Positions 32,604 to 41,223 of a DNA stretch of 64,000 nt are shown here, one piece after another. Every line of letters starts with the position of its first letter. Position 1 is the first letter of the stretch. The notes under the pieces are model-generated. The model was not told the origin of the DNA. It ran no database searches and saw nothing but the letters and a program-made list of their open reading frames with translations. Position numbers and translations under genes: made by a program. Source of the stretch: Escherichia coli 042 (GTDB lineage Bacteria; Pseudomonadota; Gammaproteobacteria; Enterobacterales; Enterobacteriaceae); assembly GCF_000027125.1 (NCBI RefSeq), contig NC_017626.1; one strand, given 5' to 3'.

Positions 32604-35600
32604 ATGGGTAAAGGAAGCAGTAAGGGGCATACCCCGCGCGAAGCGAAGGACAACCTGAAATCCACGCAATTACTGAGTGTGATCGATGCCATCAGCGAAG
32701 GGCCGATTGAAGGTCCGGTGGATGGATTAAAAAGCGTGCTGCTGAACAGTACACCGGTGCTGGACAGTGAGGGGAATACCAACATCTCCGGTGTCACGGT
32801 GGTGTTCCGGGCAGGTGAGCAGGAGCAGACACCGCCGGAGGGATTTGAATCCTCCGGTTCCGAGACGGTGCTGGGTACGGAAGTGAAATACGACACGCCG
32901 ATCACCCGGACCATCACGTCTGCAAACATCGACCGTCTGCGCTTTACCTTCGGTGTGCAGGCTCTGGTGGAAACCACCTCAAAGGGGGACCGGAATCCGT
33001 CGGAAGTCCGCCTGCTGGTTCAGATACAACGTAACGGTGGCTGGGTGACGGAAAAAGACATCACCATTAAGGGCAAAACCACCTCGCAGTATCTGGCCTC
33101 GGTGGTGGTGGGTAACCTGCCGCCGCGCCCGTTTAATATCCGGATGCGCAGAATGACGCCGGACAGCACCACAGACCAGCTGCAGAACAAAACGCTCTGG
33201 TCGTCATACACCGAAATCATCGATGTGAAACAGTGCTACCCGAACACGGCACTGGTCGGCGTGCAGGTGGATTCGGAGCAGTTCGGCAGCCAGCAGGTGA
33301 GCCGTAATTATCATCTGCGCGGGCGTATTCTGCAGGTGCCGTCGAATTATAACCCGCAGACGCGGCAATACAGCGGTATCTGGGACGGAACGTTTAAACC
33401 GGCATACAGCAACAACATGGCCTGGTGTCTGTGGGATATGCTGACCCATCCGCGCTACGGCATGGGGAAACGTCTTGGTGCGGCGGATGTGGATAAATGG
33501 GCGCTGTATGTCATCGGCCAGAATTGCGACCAGTCGGTGCCGGATGGCTTTGGTGGCACGGAGCCGCGTATTACCTGTAATGCGTACCTGACCACGCAGC
33601 GCAAGGCGTGGGATGTGCTCAGTGATTTCTGCTCGGCGATGCGCTGTATGCCGGTATGGAACGGGCAGACGCTGACGTTTGTGCAGGACCGGCCATCGGA
33701 TAAGGTGTGGACCTATAACCGCAGTAATGTGGTGATGCCGGATGATGGCGCGCCGTTCCGCTACAGCTTCAGCGCCCTGAAAGACCGCCATAATGCCGTT
33801 GAGGTGAACTGGATTGACCCGAACAACGGCTGGGAGACGGCGACAGAGCTTGTGGAGGATACGCAGGCCATTGCCCGTTACGGTCGTAACGTCACGAAGA
33901 TGGATGCTTTTGGCTGTACCAGCCGGGGGCAGGCACACCGCGCCGGGCTGTGGCTGATTAAAACAGAACTGCTGGAAACGCAGACCGTGGACTTCAGCGT
34001 GGGCGCAGAAGGGCTTCGCCATGTGCCGGGCGATGTCATTGAAATCTGTGATGATGACTATGCCGGTATCAGCACCGGCGGGCGCGTGCTGGCGGTAAAC
34101 AGCCAGACCCGGACGCTGACGCTCGACCGTGAAATCACGCTGCCATCCTCCGGCACCACGCTGATAAGCCTGGTTGACGGACAGGGGAATCCGGTCAGCG
34201 TGGAGGTCCAGTCCGTCACCGACGGCGTGAAGGTGAAAGTGAGCCGTGTTCCTGACGGCGTTGCCGAATACAGCGTGTGGGGGCTGAAGCTGCCGACGCT
34301 GCGCCAGCGCCTGTTCCGCTGCGTGAGTATCCGTGAAAACGATGACGGCACGTATGCCATCACCGCCGTGCAGCATGTACCGGAAAAAGAAGCCATCGTG
34401 GATAACGGGGCGCACTTTGACGGCGACCAGAGCGGCACGGTGAATGGTGTCACGCCGCCAGCGGTGCAGCACCTGACTGCCGAAGTCACCGCAGACAGCG
34501 GGGAGTATCAGGTACTGGCCCGCTGGGACACGCCGAAGGTGGTGAAGGGGGTGAGCTTTATGCTTCGCCTGACCGTGGCAGCGGATGACGGCAGTGAGCG
34601 GCTGGTCAGCACGGCCAGGACGACGGAAACCACATACCGCTTCACGCAACTGGCGCTGGGAAACTACAGGCTGACAGTCCGGGCGGCAAATGCCTGGGGG
34701 CAGCAGGGCGATCCGGCATCGGTATCGTTCCGGATTGCCGCACCGGCAGCGCCGTCGCGGATTGAGCTGACGCCGGGCTATTTTCAGATAACCGCCACGC
34801 CGTATCTTGCCGTTTATGATCCGACGGTACAGTTTGAGTTCTGGTTCTCAGAAAAGCGGATTGCGGATATCAGGCAGGTTGAAACCGCAGCCCGCTATCT
34901 TGGCTCGGCGCTGTACTGGATAGCTGCCAGTATCAATATCAAGCCGGGCCATGATTATTATTTTTATATCCGCAGTGTGAATACTGTTGGCAAATCGGCA
35001 TTCGTGGAGGCTGTCGGTCGGGCGAGCGATGATGCGGAAGGTTACCTGGATTTTTTCAAAGGAGAAATCGGGAAAACACATCTGGCCCAGGAGCTGTGGA
35101 CGCAGATTGATAACGGTCAGCTTGCGCCGGACCTGGCTGAAATCAGGACGTCCATTACGAATGTCAGCAATGAAATCACGCAGACCGTCAATAAAAAACT
35201 GGAAAATCAGAGTGCGGCAATCCAGCAGATACAGAAAGTTCAGGTTGATACAAATAATAACCTGAACAGCATGTGGGCCGTGAAACTGCAGCAGATGCAG
35301 GACGGACGCCTTTATATTGCGGGTATCGGTGCCGGTATTGAGAATACGCCAGCAGGAATGCAGAGTCAGGTGCTGCTGGCGGCAGACAGGATTGCGATGA
35401 TTAATCCTGCGAATGGCAACACAAAGCCGATGTTTGTTGGTCAGGGCGATCAGATATTTATGAATGAAGTGTTCCTGAAATATCTGACGGCTCCCACCAT
35501 TACCAGCGGCGGTAATCCTCCGGCATTTTCCCTGACACCGGACGGGCGGCTGACGGCGAAAAATGCCGATATCAGCGGTAACGTGAATGCGAACTCCGGG

Positions 35601-36083
35601 ACGCTCAACAACGTCACGATTAACGAGAACTGTCGGGTTCTGGGAAAATTGTCCGCGAACCAGATTGAAGGCGATCTCGTTAAAACAGTGGGCAAAGCTT
35701 TCCCCCGGGACTCCCGTGCACCGGAGCGGTGGCCATCAGGAACCATTACCGTCAGGGTTTATGACGATCAGCCGTTTGACCGGCAGATTGTTATTCCGGC
35801 GGTGGCATTCAGCGGCGCTAAACATGAGAAAGAGCATACTGATATTTACTCCTCATGCCGTCTGATAGTGCGGAAAAACGGTGCTGAAATTTATAACCGT
35901 ACCGCGCTGGATAATACGCTGATTTACAGTGGTGTTATTGATATGCCTGCCGGTCACGGTCACATGACACTGGAGTTTTCGGTGTCAGCATGGCTGGTAA
36001 ATAACTGGTATCCCACAGCAAGTATCAGCGATTTGCTGGTTGTGGTGATGAAGAAAGCCACTGCAGGCATCACGATTAGCTGA
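32604..36083 (+). CDS. J: Tail tip / host specificity protein J
   Basis: 1159 aa, lambda gpJ size and position. Confidence 0.9.
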
Positions 36084-36150: not shown

Positions 36151-36750
36151 ATGCGTAAATTATGTGCTGTTATTTTGTCCGCAGTAGTCTGGCAGGTCGC
36201 CGCTGCTACGCCAGCGAGTGCAGCAGAACATCAGTCCACGCTGAGCGCGGGGTATCTCCATGCCTCGACGAACGTTCCCGGTAGTGATGATCTGAACGGG
36301 ATTAACGTGAAATACCGTTATGAGTTTACGGACGCGCTGGGGCTGATTACGTCCTTCAGTTATGCCAATGCTGAGGATGAGCAAAAAACGCGCTACAGCG
36401 ATACCCGCTGGCATGAAGATTCCGTGCGTAACCGCTGGTTCAGCGTGATGGCGGGGCCGTCTGTACGCGTGAATGAATGGTTCAGCGCGTATGCGATGGT
36501 GGGTGTGGCTTACAGCCGTGTGTCGACTTTCTCCGGGGATTATCTCCGCGTAACTGACAACAAGGGGAAAACGCACGATGTGCTGACCGGAAGTGATGAC
36601 GGTCGCCACAGCAACACGTCTCTGGCGTGGGGGGCTGGCGTGCAGTTTAATCCGACCGAATCCGTGACCATTGACCTTGCTTATGAAGGTTCCGGTAGTG
36701 GCGACTGGCGAACGGATGCATTTATTGTTGGTATCGGATACCGTTTCTGA
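36151..36750 (+). CDS. lom: Lom-like outer membrane protein (Ail/Lom family)
   Basis: 199 aa; signal peptide, beta-barrel with C-terminal ...GIGYRF, directly after J. Confidence 0.85.
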   Translation: MRKLCAVILSAVVWQVAAATPASAAEHQSTLSAGYLHASTNVPGSDDLNGINVKYRYEFTDALGLITSFSYANAEDEQKTRYSDTRWHEDSVRNRWFSVMAGPSVRVNEWFSAYAMVGVAYSRVSTFSGDYLRVTDNKGKTHDVLTGSDDGRHSNTSLAWGAGVQFNPTESVTIDLAYEGSGSGDWRTDAFIVGIGYRF

Positions 36751-36901
36751 CAACAGACGCCGATTTATCTTCTGTAAATATTGTTATGATACGCAGGTTC
36801 ATCCACCTTATGGGGTGAACTGCGTTTGAGGAAACGTAAAGTTACACTGTCCTGAAGCCCGTGGCGTCACTGCTGCGGGCTTTTTTTATTGGTGGAAAAG
36901 T

Positions 36902-39900
36902 ATGACAGTAAAAATTTCTGGCGTGCTTAAAGATGGCACAGGAAAACCAGTACAGAACTGCACCATTGTGCTGAAGGCCAGACGAACCAGCAGCACGGTG
37001 GTGGTGAACACGGTGGCCTCTGAAAATCCGGATGAAGCCGGACGTTACAGCATGGATGTTGAGCATGGTCAGTACAGCGTCACCCTGCTGGTTGAAGGTT
37101 TTCCGCCTTCACATGCCGGGACCATTACCGTCTATGAAGGTTCCAGATCAGGTACGCTGAATGATTTTCTCGGTGCCATGACGGAGGATGATGTCCGACC
37201 GGAGGCACTGCGCCGCTTTGAGCAGATGGTGGAAGAGGTGTCACGTAACGCCTCCGCGGTTGCACAGAATACGGCAGCCGCGAAAAAATCAGCCAGCGAT
37301 GCCAGTGCATCAGCCAGCGAGGCGGCAACTCATGCAACCGATGCTGCAGCCTCAGCACGTGCCGCCAGCACGTCAGCCGGACAGGCCGCGTCGTCGGCTC
37401 AGTCAGCGTCTTCCAGCGCAGGAACGGCATCGACAAAGACCCGTGAAGCAGCAAAAAGTGCTGCTGCTGCAGAGTCATCAAAAAGCGCGGCAGCTACCAG
37501 CGCCAGTGCCGCGAAAACGTCAGAAACGAATGCCGCAGCATCACAAAAATCGGCAGCCACTTCTGCATCCACAGCGACCACGAAGGCGTCAGAAGCTGCC
37601 ACCTCGGCACGGGGTGCGGCGGCCTCAAAAGAGGCAGCGAAATCTTCAGAAACGAATGCATCATCAAGTGCCAGTAGTGCAGCTTCCTCGGCAACGGCGG
37701 CAGGAAATTCCGCGAAGGCGGCAAAAACGTCCGAGACGAACGCTAAGTCTTCTGAAACAGCAGCGGGACAGAGCGCCTCAGCTGCGGCAGGTTCAAAAAC
37801 AGCGGCTGCATTATCTGCCAGTGCCGCGTCAACAAGTGCCGGGCAGGCCTCAGCCAGTGCCACCGCCGCCGGAAAATCGGCAGAAAGCGCCGCATCATCC
37901 GCTTCAACAGCCACAACGAAGGCTGGCAAAGCCACTGAGCAAGCCACTGCAGCAGCGAGGTCTGCTTCTGCAGCAAAAACCTCTGAAACAAATGCAAAGA
38001 CTTCAGCAGACAATGCTGCTTCCTCTAAGGCGGCAGCCGCATCGTCAGCCAGTTCAGCGGCGTCATCGGCATCATCTGCGTCTGCTTCAAAAGATGAGGC
38101 GACCAGACAAGCGTCAGCAGCGAAAGGTAGTGCCACGACAGCAACAACGAAAGCATCAGAGGCGGCAGGCAGTGCGACGGCTGCATCTCAGAGCAAAGTT
38201 GCTGCTGAATCCGCGGCAACGCGCGCCGAGACAGCAGCAAAACGGGCAGAGGATATTGCATCCGCCGTGGCGCTGGAGGATGCGAGCACGACGAAAAAGG
38301 GGATAGTACAGCTCAGCAGTGCAACAAACAGCACCAGTGAAAAGCTGGCGGCAACGCCAAAGGCAGTTAAAACTGTTAAAGATAGTTCAGTTCAAAAAAC
38401 TGGCGACACAATGGGAGGGCAGTTAAAAATCAGCACGATAAATGCTCTTCGAATATTCAACCAAGCCTTTGGCCTTATTTTTAGGCGTTCCGAAGATCAT
38501 CTTCATCTTATTCCGACTAATGAAGGGGAGGGGGAAAATGGAGACATCGGTTCATTAAGACCATTCTCTATAAACTTAAGATCAGGGTTGGTGTCCATCG
38601 GTAATGGACTAAAAGTTGGTGGTAGTGTTACTGGTAATTTGACCGGAAACGCAGATACTGCGACCAAGATCAAGACAGCACGTAAGATTGGGGGCGTGGC
38701 ATTTGATGGATCGGCAGATATCAACTTGCCTGGAGTCAACGCTACCGGTAATCAAAACACTACAGGTAATGCTGCGACCGCCACGAAACTTCAGGCAGCC
38801 AGAACGATTAACGGTGTGTCATTTGATGGTAGTGCAAATATCACATTGACCCCTTCAAATATTGGGGCATTGGCATTAACTGGAGGGACTCTTTCAGGTG
38901 GTTTAACTGCTGCTGGTGAGGTTATTTCAAGGTCAGCAAATGGTCTGCGTATTGCCTATGGCAACTATGGATTCTTTATCCGAAATGATGGATCAAACAC
39001 ATATTTTATGTTGACAGATTCGGGTAACAGTCTTGGTACGCACAATAGCTTAAGGCCGTTTATAATTAGTAACCATACTGGCAATGTTACAATTGCAACT
39101 AAATTAAACGCGAGTGGTGGTATCACTGGATCTTTATCGGGTAATGCAAGCACAGCAACCAAATTGCAAACTGCAAGGACAATTAACGGCGTAAAATTTG
39201 ACGGCTCGGCAAATATTGAAGCGTTTCCGCCAGGTGTTCCGCTGCCGTGGCCATCAGATACACCACCTGCAGGTTATGCAATCATGCAGGGGCAGACGTT
39301 TGATAAGGCAGCATATCCGAAACTGGCTATTGCCTATCCTTCAGGTGTTATTCCAGATATGCGCGGCTGGACAATCAAGGGCAAACCCGCCAGTGGCCGG
39401 GCCGTATTGTCTCAGGAACAGGACGGCATTAAATCGCACACCCACAGCGCCAGCGCATCCAGTACGGATTTGGGGACGAAAAACACATCGTCGTTTGATT
39501 ACGGAACCAAATCCACGAATAACACCGGGGCGCATACCCATAGTATTAGCGGGACTGCAAATAGTGCCGGTGCGCACCAACACAAGAGTTCCGGTGCATT
39601 TGGTGGCACGAACACGAGCATTTTCCCTAATGGTTATACCGCGATTTCAAATCTAAGCGCGGGGATTATGAGCACAACAAGCGGTAGTGGCCTGACTCGT
39701 AATGCAGGGAAGACATCATCAGATGGTGCTCATACCCACTCGCTGTCCGGCACTGCTGCAAGCGCAGGCGCACATGCACATACTGTCGGTATTGGTGCTC
39801 ATACGCACTCCGTTGCGATTGGCTCACATGGACACACCATCACCGTTAACGCTGCTGGTAACGCGGAAAACACCGTCAAAAACATCGCATTTAACTATAT

Positions 39901-39916
39901 TGTGAGGCTTGCATAA
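36902..39916 (+). CDS. stf: Side tail fibre protein with long Ala/Ser/Thr-rich repetitive region
   Basis: 1004 aa; repeated KTSETNA-containing modules at roughly aa 100-470; repeats of '[G/N]GV(S/K)FDGSA' in the C-terminal half. Confidence 0.85.
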
Positions 39917-40500
39917 TGGTATTCAGAATGAGTGAACAACCACGGACCATAACAATTTATAATCTGCTGGCCGGAACTAATGAATTTATTGGTGAAGGTG
40001 ATGCATATATTCCGCCTCATACAGGTCTGCCAGCAAACAGTACCGATATTGCACCGCCAGATATTCCGGCAGGCTTCGTGGCTGTTTTCAACAGTGATGA
40101 GGCATCGTGGCATCTCGTTGAAGATCATCGGGGTAAAACGGTTTATGACGTGGCTTCCGGCGACGCGTTATTTATTTCTGAACTCGGTCCGTTACCGGAA
40201 AATGTTACCTGGTTATCGCCGGAAGGGGAGTTTCAGAAGTGGAACGGCACAGCCTGGGTGAAGGATACGGAAGCAGAAAAACTGTTCCGGATCCGGGAGG
40301 CGGAAGAAACAAAAAACAACCTGATGCAGGTAGCCAGTGAGCATATTGCGCCGCTTCAGGATGCTGCAGATCTGGAAATTGCAACGGAGGAAGAAACCTC
40401 ATTGCTGGAAGCCTGGAAAAAGTATCGGGTGTTGCTGAACCGTGTTGATACATCAACTGCACCTGATATTGAGTGGCCTACGAACCCTGTCAGGGAGTAA
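39916..40500 (+). CDS. tfa: Tail fibre assembly protein
   Basis: 194 aa directly after stf with ATGA overlap. Confidence 0.8.
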
Positions 40501-40554: not shown

Positions 40555-41223
40555 CTATTTTTTCCCTGAAGCGGAAAACATTACTACAGTACCTTGAACC
40601 TTGGTTTTAACATTCTCGAAATGCTCTGAGAGTATATGTGTTAAGCCTTCTTCGGAATCTTTTGTGTTTGAAAAGATGCCTTTCTGATTGTAAATGCGCA
40701 TCAGTTTTTGACCGAAGCTATTGTGCACAACTCCATCGCCAAGAATTGTGGCTCCGTATAGAGTTCCATCGTCAGTTAAGGCCTGCGCCGCATTGCGTAT
40801 TACACAGCTTTTTGTAGATATATTTCCAGGCAGGCAGTGAAGAAGGTAAAACATGGAAATGGAATCAAATTGACCATGTAACGCCGCGGGATAAGGTTCA
40901 AAAACATCATGGCTAATTTTATGTTTAATTTTTGATTCCCCAGCCCTTGTAGATGCCGCGTTCAGGCTAGCTTCGTTCAAATCCATTAAAGATATCAGAC
41001 TACTCTCAGGTACGTGAGTAAGGTAAAACCCAGTTCCAACACCAATATCCAGATGGTTGTTACCTAAATGTTCCAGAAAGTGTGGAAGAAGGTGTTCCTT
41101 TGTAGGACATCCCCATGCAAGCCGATTTGATACTCCCAAAACCCACCAGTCATAAAGCTTTAGGGTAAGTGGTGTGTAAATTTTAGCCCCATCATCTGTG
41201 TTTTTTTTCATTAATTTCACCAT
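40555..41223 (-). CDS. Class I SAM-dependent methyltransferase (cargo gene)
   Basis: 222 aa, AT-rich, opposite strand; HLDIGVGTGF resembles the Rossmann motif I of SAM methyltransferases. Confidence 0.6.
   Translation of the reverse strand: MVKLMKKNTDDGAKIYTPLTLKLYDWWVLGVSNRLAWGCPTKEHLLPHFLEHLGNNHLDIGVGTGFYLTHVPESSLISLMDLNEASLNAASTRAGESKIKHKISHDVFEPYPAALHGQFDSISMFYLLHCLPGNISTKSCVIRNAAQALTDDGTLYGATILGDGVVHNSFGQKLMRIYNQKGIFSNTKDSEEGLTHILSEHFENVKTKVQGTVVMFSASGKK

Follow-up and report, generated by a model that had tools for sequence, protein, structure and literature searches.

The Ala/Ser/Thr-rich region of the side tail fibre gene stf in Escherichia coli 042 very probably encodes a lambdoid side tail fibre's proximal coiled-coil shaft, a spacer that evolves in length by whole heptads. 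Its repeat is a protein-level heptad carried in nonrepetitive DNA. All positions given here refer to the 64,000-nucleotide stretch of DNA that was analyzed (the window), and all features are on the plus strand unless stated otherwise.

The stf gene spans positions 36902 to 39916 and encodes 1004 amino acids. The list of open reading frames and Pfam place it between lom and tfa in the order J-lom-stf-tfa; tfa, encoding the tail fibre assembly chaperone, lies directly downstream (39916 to 40500; Pfam Caudo_TAP, E value of 2e-44). Pfam assigned residues 1 to 134 of Stf to phage_tail_N (PF08400; E value of 1e-68), residues 620 to 722 to Gp34_trimer, and residues 778 to 825 to Collar, and the protein is collinear with its lambda counterpart up to a conserved junction motif. 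In a strain with 100% identical rod DNA, PGAP names the product “prophage tail fiber N-terminal domain-containing protein”; the two proteins differ only in the tip, from residue 861 to about 945, and are identical upstream. On sequence evidence, the 1004-residue product is the lambdoid side tail fibre Stf, as an earlier note on this DNA had proposed.

The fibre begins with the StfN collar domain (aa 1 to 91; 36902 to 37174), a predicted beta-sandwich that, by its role in lambda, would dock on the tail tube or tip (PMC12617516). It matches residues 1 to 94 of the Ur-lambda tail fibre protein (PDB 9e7m/9mgh; E value of 4e-46), and AlphaFold2 (AF2) predicts beta strands at residues 2 to 77 with a pLDDT of 81 to 87. 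A putative flexible linker follows (aa about 92 to 102; 37175 to 37207), where AF2 pLDDT falls below 50 at residues 92 to 99; the lambda linker comprises residues 92 to 101 (PMC12617516). Next come the continuous heptad pattern (aa 103 to 456, about 50.5 heptads; 37208 to 38269) and, within and slightly beyond it, the Ala/Ser/Thr-rich rod core (aa 113 to 460; 37238 to 38281). The rod is closed by the junction motif (aa 465 to 490; 38294 to 38371), whose invariant alignment columns include K466, G467, V469, L471, and S473 and which recurs in P2-like gpH (at the DNA level) and in structures of Mu tail fibre S (5yvq/8ju3). Distal to it lie shaft modules resembling T4 gp34 (aa 557 to 753; 38570 to 39160), which match PDB 4uxe, 5nxf, and 5nxh with E values of 1e-14 to 1e-17, and a putative receptor-binding tip resembling T4 gp37 (aa 743 to 1004; 39128 to 39913), which matches PDB 2xgf with an E value of 1e-79.

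The rod core is 348 residues long and 73% Ala, Ser, and Thr (134 Ala, 82 Ser, and 39 Thr, with 25 Lys and 18 Glu). The biased array of about 370 residues that had been placed at 37200 to 38350 is thus real and lies inside that span, but its extent is nearer 350 residues. The peptide motifs named for it are present at a constant position in the heptad: KTSETNA three times (five as K[ST]SE[TA][NA]A), SASAA four times, and ATTKA three times. The region is indeed a degenerate repeat, and its periodicity lies well outside what chance would give: identity autocorrelation had z values of 6.8 to 10.7 at each of the 14 multiples of 7 through lag 98 and background or lower values at other lags. About 50 heptads run without a phase break, and the register was constant in 44 of 44 sliding windows. 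The consensus from a to g is A-S/T-A-A-A/S/K-T/S-S. When the sequence is laid out with position a in column 4 and position d in column 7, Ala fills position d in 47 of 50 heptads, the other 3 having Val, position a is Ala in 35 and polar (Lys or Glu, as in KTSETNA) in 11, and column 3 is Ser in 37. Canonical residues at the N-terminal end (L103, F106, V110, V113, and V120) set the a/d register, and A453 and V456 occupy these positions at the C-terminal end. Small or hydrophobic residues fill a and d without phase breaks, the pattern that defines a coiled coil.

The earlier note left open whether this region forms a coiled coil or a beta-helix. The heptad pattern, the AF2 model, and homologous domains together point to a coiled coil of alpha helices. 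In AF2, the rod is predicted as helices at residues 95 to 274 and 281 to 455 with a pLDDT of 74 to 81. The monomer model breaks the helix at residues 275 to 280 and folds the rod back into a hairpin, which is probably an artefact of modeling a single chain, with a real hinge at this site a possibility; the AlphaFold3 (AF3) model of Ur-lambda Stf is similarly folded, at odds with tomograms (PMC12617516). Residues 102 to 393 of lambda Stf form a trimeric proximal coiled coil according to a 2025 study by cryo-EM/ET and AF3, joined to the collar domains through three roughly 10-residue linkers, and the rod is visible in Ur-lambda tomograms (PMC12617516). The PCoil domain of E. coli O157 prophages is alpha-helical by circular dichroism (CD) and trimeric by SEC-MALLS; it follows a loose A-x-x-A/S-x-x-S heptad, and its length differences are multiples of seven (PMC3368898). 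The trimer is established there for EPclA PfN-PCoil, which melts cooperatively and reversibly. A PDB sequence search returned no solved Ala/Ser rod; matches were confined to StfN residues 1 to 94, the Mu S-type junction, and the regions resembling gp34 and gp37. We considered whether the region could instead be a disordered low-complexity linker, as is common for Ala/Ser/Thr-rich sequence, or a shaft of beta structure (a triple beta-helix or a beta-spiral), as is frequent in phage fibres and occurs in the distal half of this same Stf. Neither model explains a strict, unbroken heptad with Ala at a and d, and both run against the predicted helix, the CD and SEC-MALLS data on homologous domains, and the rod seen in tomograms; we regard them as extremely unlikely.

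Taken with the literature on homologues, the coiled-coil reading suggests the following arrangement. Three copies of Stf, tethered to the tail through their N-terminal collar domains and short flexible linkers, would wind together as a parallel trimer, a single left-handed coiled coil of alpha helices with about 50 unbroken heptads (aa 103 to 456). The core would be nearly all Ala at a and d, with Ser beside it at g and larger hydrophobic residues only at the ends (L/F/V/V N terminal and I/V/L C terminal). Both the parallel trimeric state and the role in adsorption are carried over from homologues; an all-Ala core is unusual, and sequence gives no certain reading of its oligomeric state. We infer that the shaft of the window copy is roughly 52 nm long and serves as a stiff spacer keeping the gp34-like modules and gp37-like tip away from the tail. 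This spacing would let the fibre reach the cell surface ahead of the central J fibre, and evolution of the rod by whole heptads would keep its register continuous.

The repeat does not extend to the DNA. The earlier note had placed GC-rich DNA repeats beneath the array. The rod core DNA has a GC fraction of 0.59. Tandem Repeats Finder (TRF; minimum score, 30) found no tandem array across the rod, only arrays of 26 and 29 nt with scores of 45 and 37. The latter is a micro-tandem with a 9-nt period and 3.2 copies (38054 to 38082). Within the 1044 nt, exact direct repeats reach 14 nt at most, as expected after codon shuffling (mean, 12.4; maximum, 18), and a repeat search with a seed of 8 recovered short, weak families only. 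The best internal 35-residue matches reach 66% identity as protein and 49 to 58% as DNA. All four Ala and all six Ser codons are present and intermixed, and the same peptide motifs are written with different codons.

These observations bear on whether the region is a hypervariable variable-number tandem repeat (VNTR) or contingency array in which frequent slippage or unequal recombination rapidly changes fibre length, as had been suggested for it. Repeat number was checked across relatives and is indeed not identical: lengths fall into classes that differ between relatives. Signs of slippage exist on a small scale. Two near-identical 15-nt direct repeats lie 21 nt apart at 37288 to 37323 (11 nt exact, TCAGCCAGCGA), and in some relatives a one-heptad (21-nt) deletion falls exactly between the two 11-nt repeats: Shigella sonnei proteins P0007 to P0011 lack SASDASA, and the DNA of relative L020 lacks exactly one repeat unit. 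Singleton variants of ±3 residues sit at micro-tandems; protein P0040, for example, lacks ASS at 38054 to 38082. Such events are small and rare among close relatives. Against a VNTR, head-to-tail DNA repeats are not detectable beyond chance, and copy number polymorphism in close relatives is confined to the rare one-heptad and ±3-residue variants. Of the 115 near-identical proteins with both anchors located, 108 have the same length, and among the full-length E. coli genome matches listed, nearly all align as one piece without gaps, at identities as low as 84%. The 105-residue difference from lambda described below has at most 5 to 6 nt of microhomology at its junctions, which itself says nothing on mechanism. 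The VNTR reading is thus largely refuted, and we consider it very unlikely; with it falls the picture of a recombination-prone array, since close relatives are almost invariant in length.

Over wider distances, the coiled-coil rod differs in length mostly by whole heptads. Representatives clustered at 50% identity have anchor-to-anchor distances of 382, 333, 277, 270, 179, 165, 158, and 116 residues, all 4 modulo 7, and in-phase IMG/VR loci have distances of 382, 375, 277, 270, and 158. Distances are in phase in 26 of 32 representative clusters and in 49 of 54 anchored IMG/VR loci, 39 of the 54 being unchanged in length. Between the fixed anchors, rods of relatives span about 16 to 54 heptads. 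Continuity of the register has exceptions, out-of-phase lengths of 129, 162, 174, 374, and 426 residues occurring in some relatives; protein P0186, in which a duplicated junction motif misled the C-terminal anchor search, was left out of these true out-of-phase rods. Heptad-multiple length differences had already been noted in 2012 (PMC3368898). For lambda delivery particles with chimeric Stf (PMC11338833), this natural range is a menu of presumably functional lengths.

Rod length could conceivably be tuned, the shaft acting as a molecular ruler in which the number of heptads matches the thickness of the O-antigen or capsule, with codon-scrambled DNA and polar layers at position a fixing the register. 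Heptad number would then set the reach of the receptor-binding tip, the DNA would be selected to be codon scrambled so that a 50-fold protein repeat stays genetically stable, and the Lys and Glu residues at position a would block staggered misassembly of an all-Ala core. We consider this unlikely. Rod length shows no visible covariation with the distal module, and the 382-residue class is combined with at least five different C-terminal halves.

Long alternate-frame ORFs overlap the rod on both strands: a Pro/Gln/Arg-rich ORF of 372 aa in the +1 frame (37188 to 38306, plus strand), an Ala/Asp/Glu/Phe-rich antisense ORF of 245 aa (37399 to 38136, minus strand), and two further minus-strand ORFs of 118 aa (37125 to 37481) and 84 aa (37743 to 37997). 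They had been described as spurious products of the DNA repeats; they do exist, but their cause is codon composition. The rod region contains 0, 3, and 3 stop codons in the +1, -1, and -2 frames, versus 16, 8, and 28 over the 1044 nt of stf that follow, and almost no antisense stops are possible because the rod has no Tyr codons and few His or Gln codons. Their length alone might suggest that the 372-aa or 245-aa ORF is a real overlapping gene, and the latter has an annotated counterpart, orf206b, in the lambda GenBank record. The stf frame itself is under purifying selection, with 27, 25, and 85 differences from lambda at the three codon positions and thus an excess at the third. Since the antisense ORF and stf share wobble positions, codon-position statistics cannot rule the ORF out, and we judged it instead by conservation of its boundaries. 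Neither boundaries nor lengths are conserved: across relatives, the +1 frame stays open for 135 to 374 aa, the -1 frame for 82 to 357 aa, and the -2 frame for 92 to 386 aa. Pfam found no match for either of the two largest ORFs, and PGAP did not call the alternate-frame ORFs in the strain with identical rod DNA. We give an overlapping gene next to no credence. Long other-frame ORFs here, including orf206b, which is still in the lambda record, should not be called genes, and the rod region should be annotated as Stf's proximal shaft, a trimeric coiled coil, rather than as a repeat-expansion locus.

The closest described system is Ur-lambda Stf (UniProt P03764; PMC12617516), which shares the J-lom-stf-tfa position, the collar domain, the linker, the heptad register, and the junction motif. 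Identity is about 83% at the nucleotide level over the shared part (blastn, 82.7%), and lambda orf-401 is collinear with the window Stf through the rod to the junction with a single gap of 105 residues. In the pairwise alignment lambda Stf is shorter by exactly these 15 heptads (aa 304 to 408; 37811 to 38125), so the window shaft would exceed the lambda shaft by about 15 nm (about 15.5 nm as inferred from the heptad count). No recent internal duplication lies behind the extra heptads, since the best internal DNA matches are the 49 to 58% noted above. Past the junction motif the two fibres part, with gp34-like modules in the window and a hinge and distal segment in lambda.

At 89% nucleotide identity, the whole 1151-nt query aligns as one block without gaps to the stfR region of the K-12 Rac prophage, and the two therefore show no net difference in length. 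StfR is 1120 aa long. In StfR and E. coli homologues, the portions distal to the rod differ from those of the window; fibre genes are mosaic. At a coverage of at least 80%, 3576 of 5426 complete E. coli genomes carry the rod class of the window. Stx-type phages have only the first 350 nt in common with the window. The PCoil of EPclA/EPclB, the collagen-like tail fibre proteins of O157 prophages (Ghosh et al. 2012; PMC3368898), has the same PfN domain (PF08400) upstream and a similar Ala/Ser-rich, low-complexity heptad, but it is much shorter (coiled coil predicted at about residues 101 to 245; stalk of about 16 nm), is richer in Glu, and leads into a collagen triple helix instead of the junction motif. 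The rod domain has already been described in phage lambda and O157 prophages; it is real but ordinary, and our findings on it leave current understanding unchallenged.

Phage T5, in its L-shaped tail fibre pb1, and phage Cyrano (108-kb genome), in its tail fibre, carry the same Ala/Ser/Thr heptad rod, with DNA similarity of 83% over query positions 727 to 843 and 85% over positions 554 to 1470, respectively. Their N-terminal attachment domains differ, Cyrano-like proteins lacking a PF08400-type anchor, and the T5 rod segment is only about 118 residues long. Two giant proteins with many similar heptad segments had no Pfam match. Alanine-zipper trimers, such as Braun lipoprotein Lpp-56 in its Ala-rich C-terminal part, likewise pack small core Ala residues in a parallel trimer; Lpp has 56 residues and a mixed core, whereas the window rod has Ala at both a and d over about 50 heptads.

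The repeat array lies in the plus-strand tail module of a lambdoid prophage, which carries gpJ (32604-36083, +; 1159 aa), Lom (36151-36750, +), stf (36902-39916, +; an ORF of 1004 aa), and a tail-fibre assembly gene (tfa; Pfam Caudo_TAP; 39916-40500, +). As the earlier note proposed, the 1004-aa protein is the side tail fibre (Stf), because residues 1 to 134 match the Pfam "prophage tail fibre N-terminal" domain (E = 1e-68), a T4 gp34-type trimerisation domain and a collar domain were also found by Pfam, the first 94 residues resemble the Ur-lambda tail fibre chain (PDB 9e7m/9mgh; E = 4e-46), and the last 262 resemble the receptor-binding tip of T4 gp37 (PDB 2xgf; E = 1e-79). A class I SAM-dependent methyltransferase gene (222 aa; 40555-41223, -) sits directly downstream of tfa on the opposite strand. 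After this gene, a related strain has fragments of a tfa pseudogene, a DUF4376 pseudogene, and Rha and Ash family genes, with a truncated ompW and yciE/yciF beyond them. The methyltransferase gene may be a moron (a prophage-borne accessory gene) located where the prophage ends.

Sliding composition placed the Ala/Ser/Thr-rich stretch at Stf residues 113 to 460 (window 37238-38281; A 134, S 82, T 39, K 25, E 18). At 348 aa, it lies inside the range 37200-38350 reported from the sequence alone and is slightly shorter than the ~370 residues claimed; the motifs named there are present (KTSETNA three times, or five with one or two substitutions; SASAA four times; ATTKA three times). Amino-acid autocorrelation revealed a strict period of 7, with identity of 0.38 to 0.46 at lags 7, 14, and so on to 98 (z = 6.8 to 10.7 versus shuffles) and at or below background at other lags. 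When the sequence was laid out in rows of seven starting at residue 93, one register held across ~50 consecutive heptads. Ala occupies column 7 in 47 of 50 heptads (Val in the other 3) and column 4 in 35 (with Lys or Glu in 11 of the other 15), and Ser occupies column 3 in 37. Canonical heptads just upstream of the rod core (L103, F106, V110, V113, and V120) fix the register, so that column 4 is position a and column 7 is position d; the rod ends C-terminally at A453/V456. A sliding-window register test detected neither stutter nor stammer in the copy from the window. The Lys/Glu residues at position a recur every few heptads (11/50; Stf aa 191-457, column 4, window ~37472-38272), as in K-T-S-E-T-N-A and S-S-K-S-A-A-A, and could be register-setting polar layers within an otherwise all-Ala core.

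An AlphaFold2 model of residues 1 to 520, built from an alignment of 28 sequences, comprised a beta N-domain (pLDDT 81 to 87), a disordered linker (92-99), and helices at 95-274 and 281-455 (pLDDT 74 to 81). The single helix break in this monomer, between 274 and 281, allows fold-back and is probably an artefact of a type that the Ur-lambda study likewise notes for full-length predictions (PMC12617516). The PDB holds no deposited atomic structure of an Ala/Ser rod. In the 2025 cryo-EM/cryo-ET study of Ur-lambda, each side fibre is a trimer in which a single trimeric bundle connects to three collar domains (PMC12617516). The corresponding low-complexity Ala/Ser segment in fibres of O157 prophages had earlier been called "PCoil" by Ghosh et al. 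(2012), whose CD and SEC-MALLS measurements showed an alpha-helical, trimeric state; they also described a loose A-x-x-A/S-x-x-S heptad and pointed out that PCoil lengths are multiples of seven apart (PMC3368898). Both the feature and the way it varies have thus been published before. The array is a genuine, strongly non-random feature, namely the trimeric Ala/Ser coiled-coil shaft already known from lambdoid side tail fibres, and its length class is the commonest in E. coli. At a rise of 0.148 nm per residue, residues 113 to 460 would span ~51.5 nm and residues 95 to 455 ~53 nm. By homology, the rod would be a stiff proximal arm holding the distal receptor-binding half of the fibre off the tail, which would let the side fibre reach the cell earlier than the central fibre (PMC12617516).

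The GC-rich DNA repeats thought to underlie the array were not borne out. Tandem Repeats Finder (TRF) detected just two micro-arrays, of 26 and 29 nt, and no exact direct repeat in the 1044 nt of the rod is longer than 14 nt, a value within the range of codon shuffles (mean, 12.4; maximum, 18). The best internal 35-residue matches share 66% protein identity but just 49 to 58% DNA identity, and the codons of the three KTSETNA copies differ at many wobble positions.

Rod length among relatives was measured as the distance from a fixed N-terminal anchor to the conserved junction motif that ends the rod. Among 150 representatives of 50%-identity clusters, 32 were anchored, and 26 of these were in phase. 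Distances were 382 (the window's value; 5 clusters), 333, 277 (lambda-like; 10 clusters), 270, 179, 165, 158, and 116 aa, all 4 modulo 7 and, beyond the window's own, 7, 15, 16, 29, 31, 32, and 38 heptads from it. The exceptions were 129 aa, 174 aa, 111 aa (the only mis-anchored one), and 377 aa (without an Ala/Ser rod). A second, independent set comprised 80 IMG/VR loci; both anchors were found in 54, of which 49 were in phase (382 aa in 39, 375 in 1, 374 in 3, 277 in 3, 270 in 5, and 158, 162, and 426 in 1 each); loci without the junction motif had rods of 39 to ~235 aa. Repeat number therefore varies, in heptad quanta, as the comparison proposed in the earlier note anticipated. Stf and lambda orf-401 are collinear over the whole proximal segment except for one clean gap: lambda lacks window residues 304 to 408, exactly 105 aa or 15 heptads, which would make the window's rod ~15.5 nm longer. 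Microhomology at the junctions of this indel is at most 5 to 6 nt.

Rod length is not hypervariable. The window's length was found in 108 of 115 near-identical database proteins (≥85% identity to the query, both anchors found). The rod class is present in 4,195 of 5,426 complete E. coli genomes, with coverage of at least 80% in 3,576; almost every full-length match listed aligns without gaps in one piece, with identity down to 84%, and K-12 stfR aligns as a single ungapped piece with 89% identity to the window's rod region. Expansion and contraction of the array by recombination, as first suggested, thus holds only in a slow, heptad-quantised evolutionary sense that is already published. Small indels were few but informative. 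A one-heptad (21-nt) deletion, SASDASA, occurs in Shigella sonnei prophage fibres (P0007 to P0011) and some IMG/VR loci (e.g., L020) and lies precisely between a pair of 11-nt direct repeats, TCAGCCAGCGA, with a spacing of 21 nt (window 37288-37323); it is a clean case of short-direct-repeat deletion that keeps heptad phase. A singleton -3-aa variant (ASS) lies within the TRF micro-array at 38054-38082, and a singleton +3-aa variant duplicates Ala-Ala-Gly (aa 322-324) at a short local repeat. Short-homology slippage therefore occurs where such repeats chance to exist, and the DNA provides few such sites.

Both strands do contain alternate-frame ORFs (frame +1, 372 aa; minus strand, 245, 118, and 84 aa). 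Stops in frames +1, +2, -0, -1, and -2 number 0, 11, 30, 3, and 3 in the rod versus 16, 30, 19, 8, and 28 in the 1044 nt of stf that follow it. One antisense frame has its wobble positions in common with stf; there, stops are possible only opposite Tyr or some His/Gln codons, of which the rod contains 0 Tyr, 1 His, and 9 Gln. Differences from lambda are dominated by the third stf codon position (27, 25, and 85 at positions 1 to 3), and open lengths vary widely among relatives (+1, 135 to 374 aa; -1, 82 to 357 aa; -2, 92 to 386 aa). Neither large ORF (372 and 245 aa) matched a Pfam family, and PGAP did not call the alternate-frame ORFs in a strain with 100% identical rod DNA. These ORFs arise as a side effect of composition. 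In the reference GenBank record of lambda, an antisense CDS named orf206b (J02459.1 20147-20767; L001 2998-3618, -) is still listed, wholly within the Ala/Ser rod of orf-401 (stf). Like the ORF at window 37399-38136 (-), orf206b is of the composition-driven kind, and it is very probably a relic of annotation. Further long antisense ORFs in the GC-rich tail region, opposite J (33204-34649, -; 481 aa) and lom (36160-36753, -; 197 aa), are probably spurious too.

Other phages share only parts of this fibre. Stx-type phages have just the first 350 nt, the collar domain, in common with the window, and P2-like gpH genes only the junction motif. The tail fibre of phage Cyrano (108-kb genome; L002 2957-6982) shares query positions 554 to 1470 (85% DNA identity), and the T5 L-shaped fibre pb1 (L003 3653-7843) shares 727 to 843 (83%). 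Both have the same Ala/Ser/Thr heptad rod but other N-terminal attachment domains, which points to horizontal movement of the rod module across siphophage families. The rod and its two ends thus mark where unrelated phages exchange modules. This fits the established view that tail fibres are mosaic, and also the choice of lambda Stf 1-393 or 1-528 as a scaffold for fusions (PMC11338833). In E. coli WP7-S17-ESBL-01, the rod DNA is 100% identical to the window's and Stf is the same through residue 860; differences, including a 4-aa length change, are confined to the gp37-like tip loops (window 39482 to ~39736; aa 861 to ~945). The fast-evolving part of Stf is the receptor-binding tip, not the rod. 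Six giant database proteins (P0202, P0218, P0221, P0225, P0232, and P0241; 2,539 to 4,436 aa) contain 5 to 14 separate Ala/Ser/Thr heptad segments, mostly ~90 to 250 aa, with gaps of roughly 130 to 350 aa. Pfam returned no match for P0241 or P0202. The metagenomic phage contig that encodes P0241 (L085 8001-21311) is 54.5 kb long and has SU10-type portal and adaptor genes; P0241 lies in its structural module and has the look of a giant fibre built in segments.
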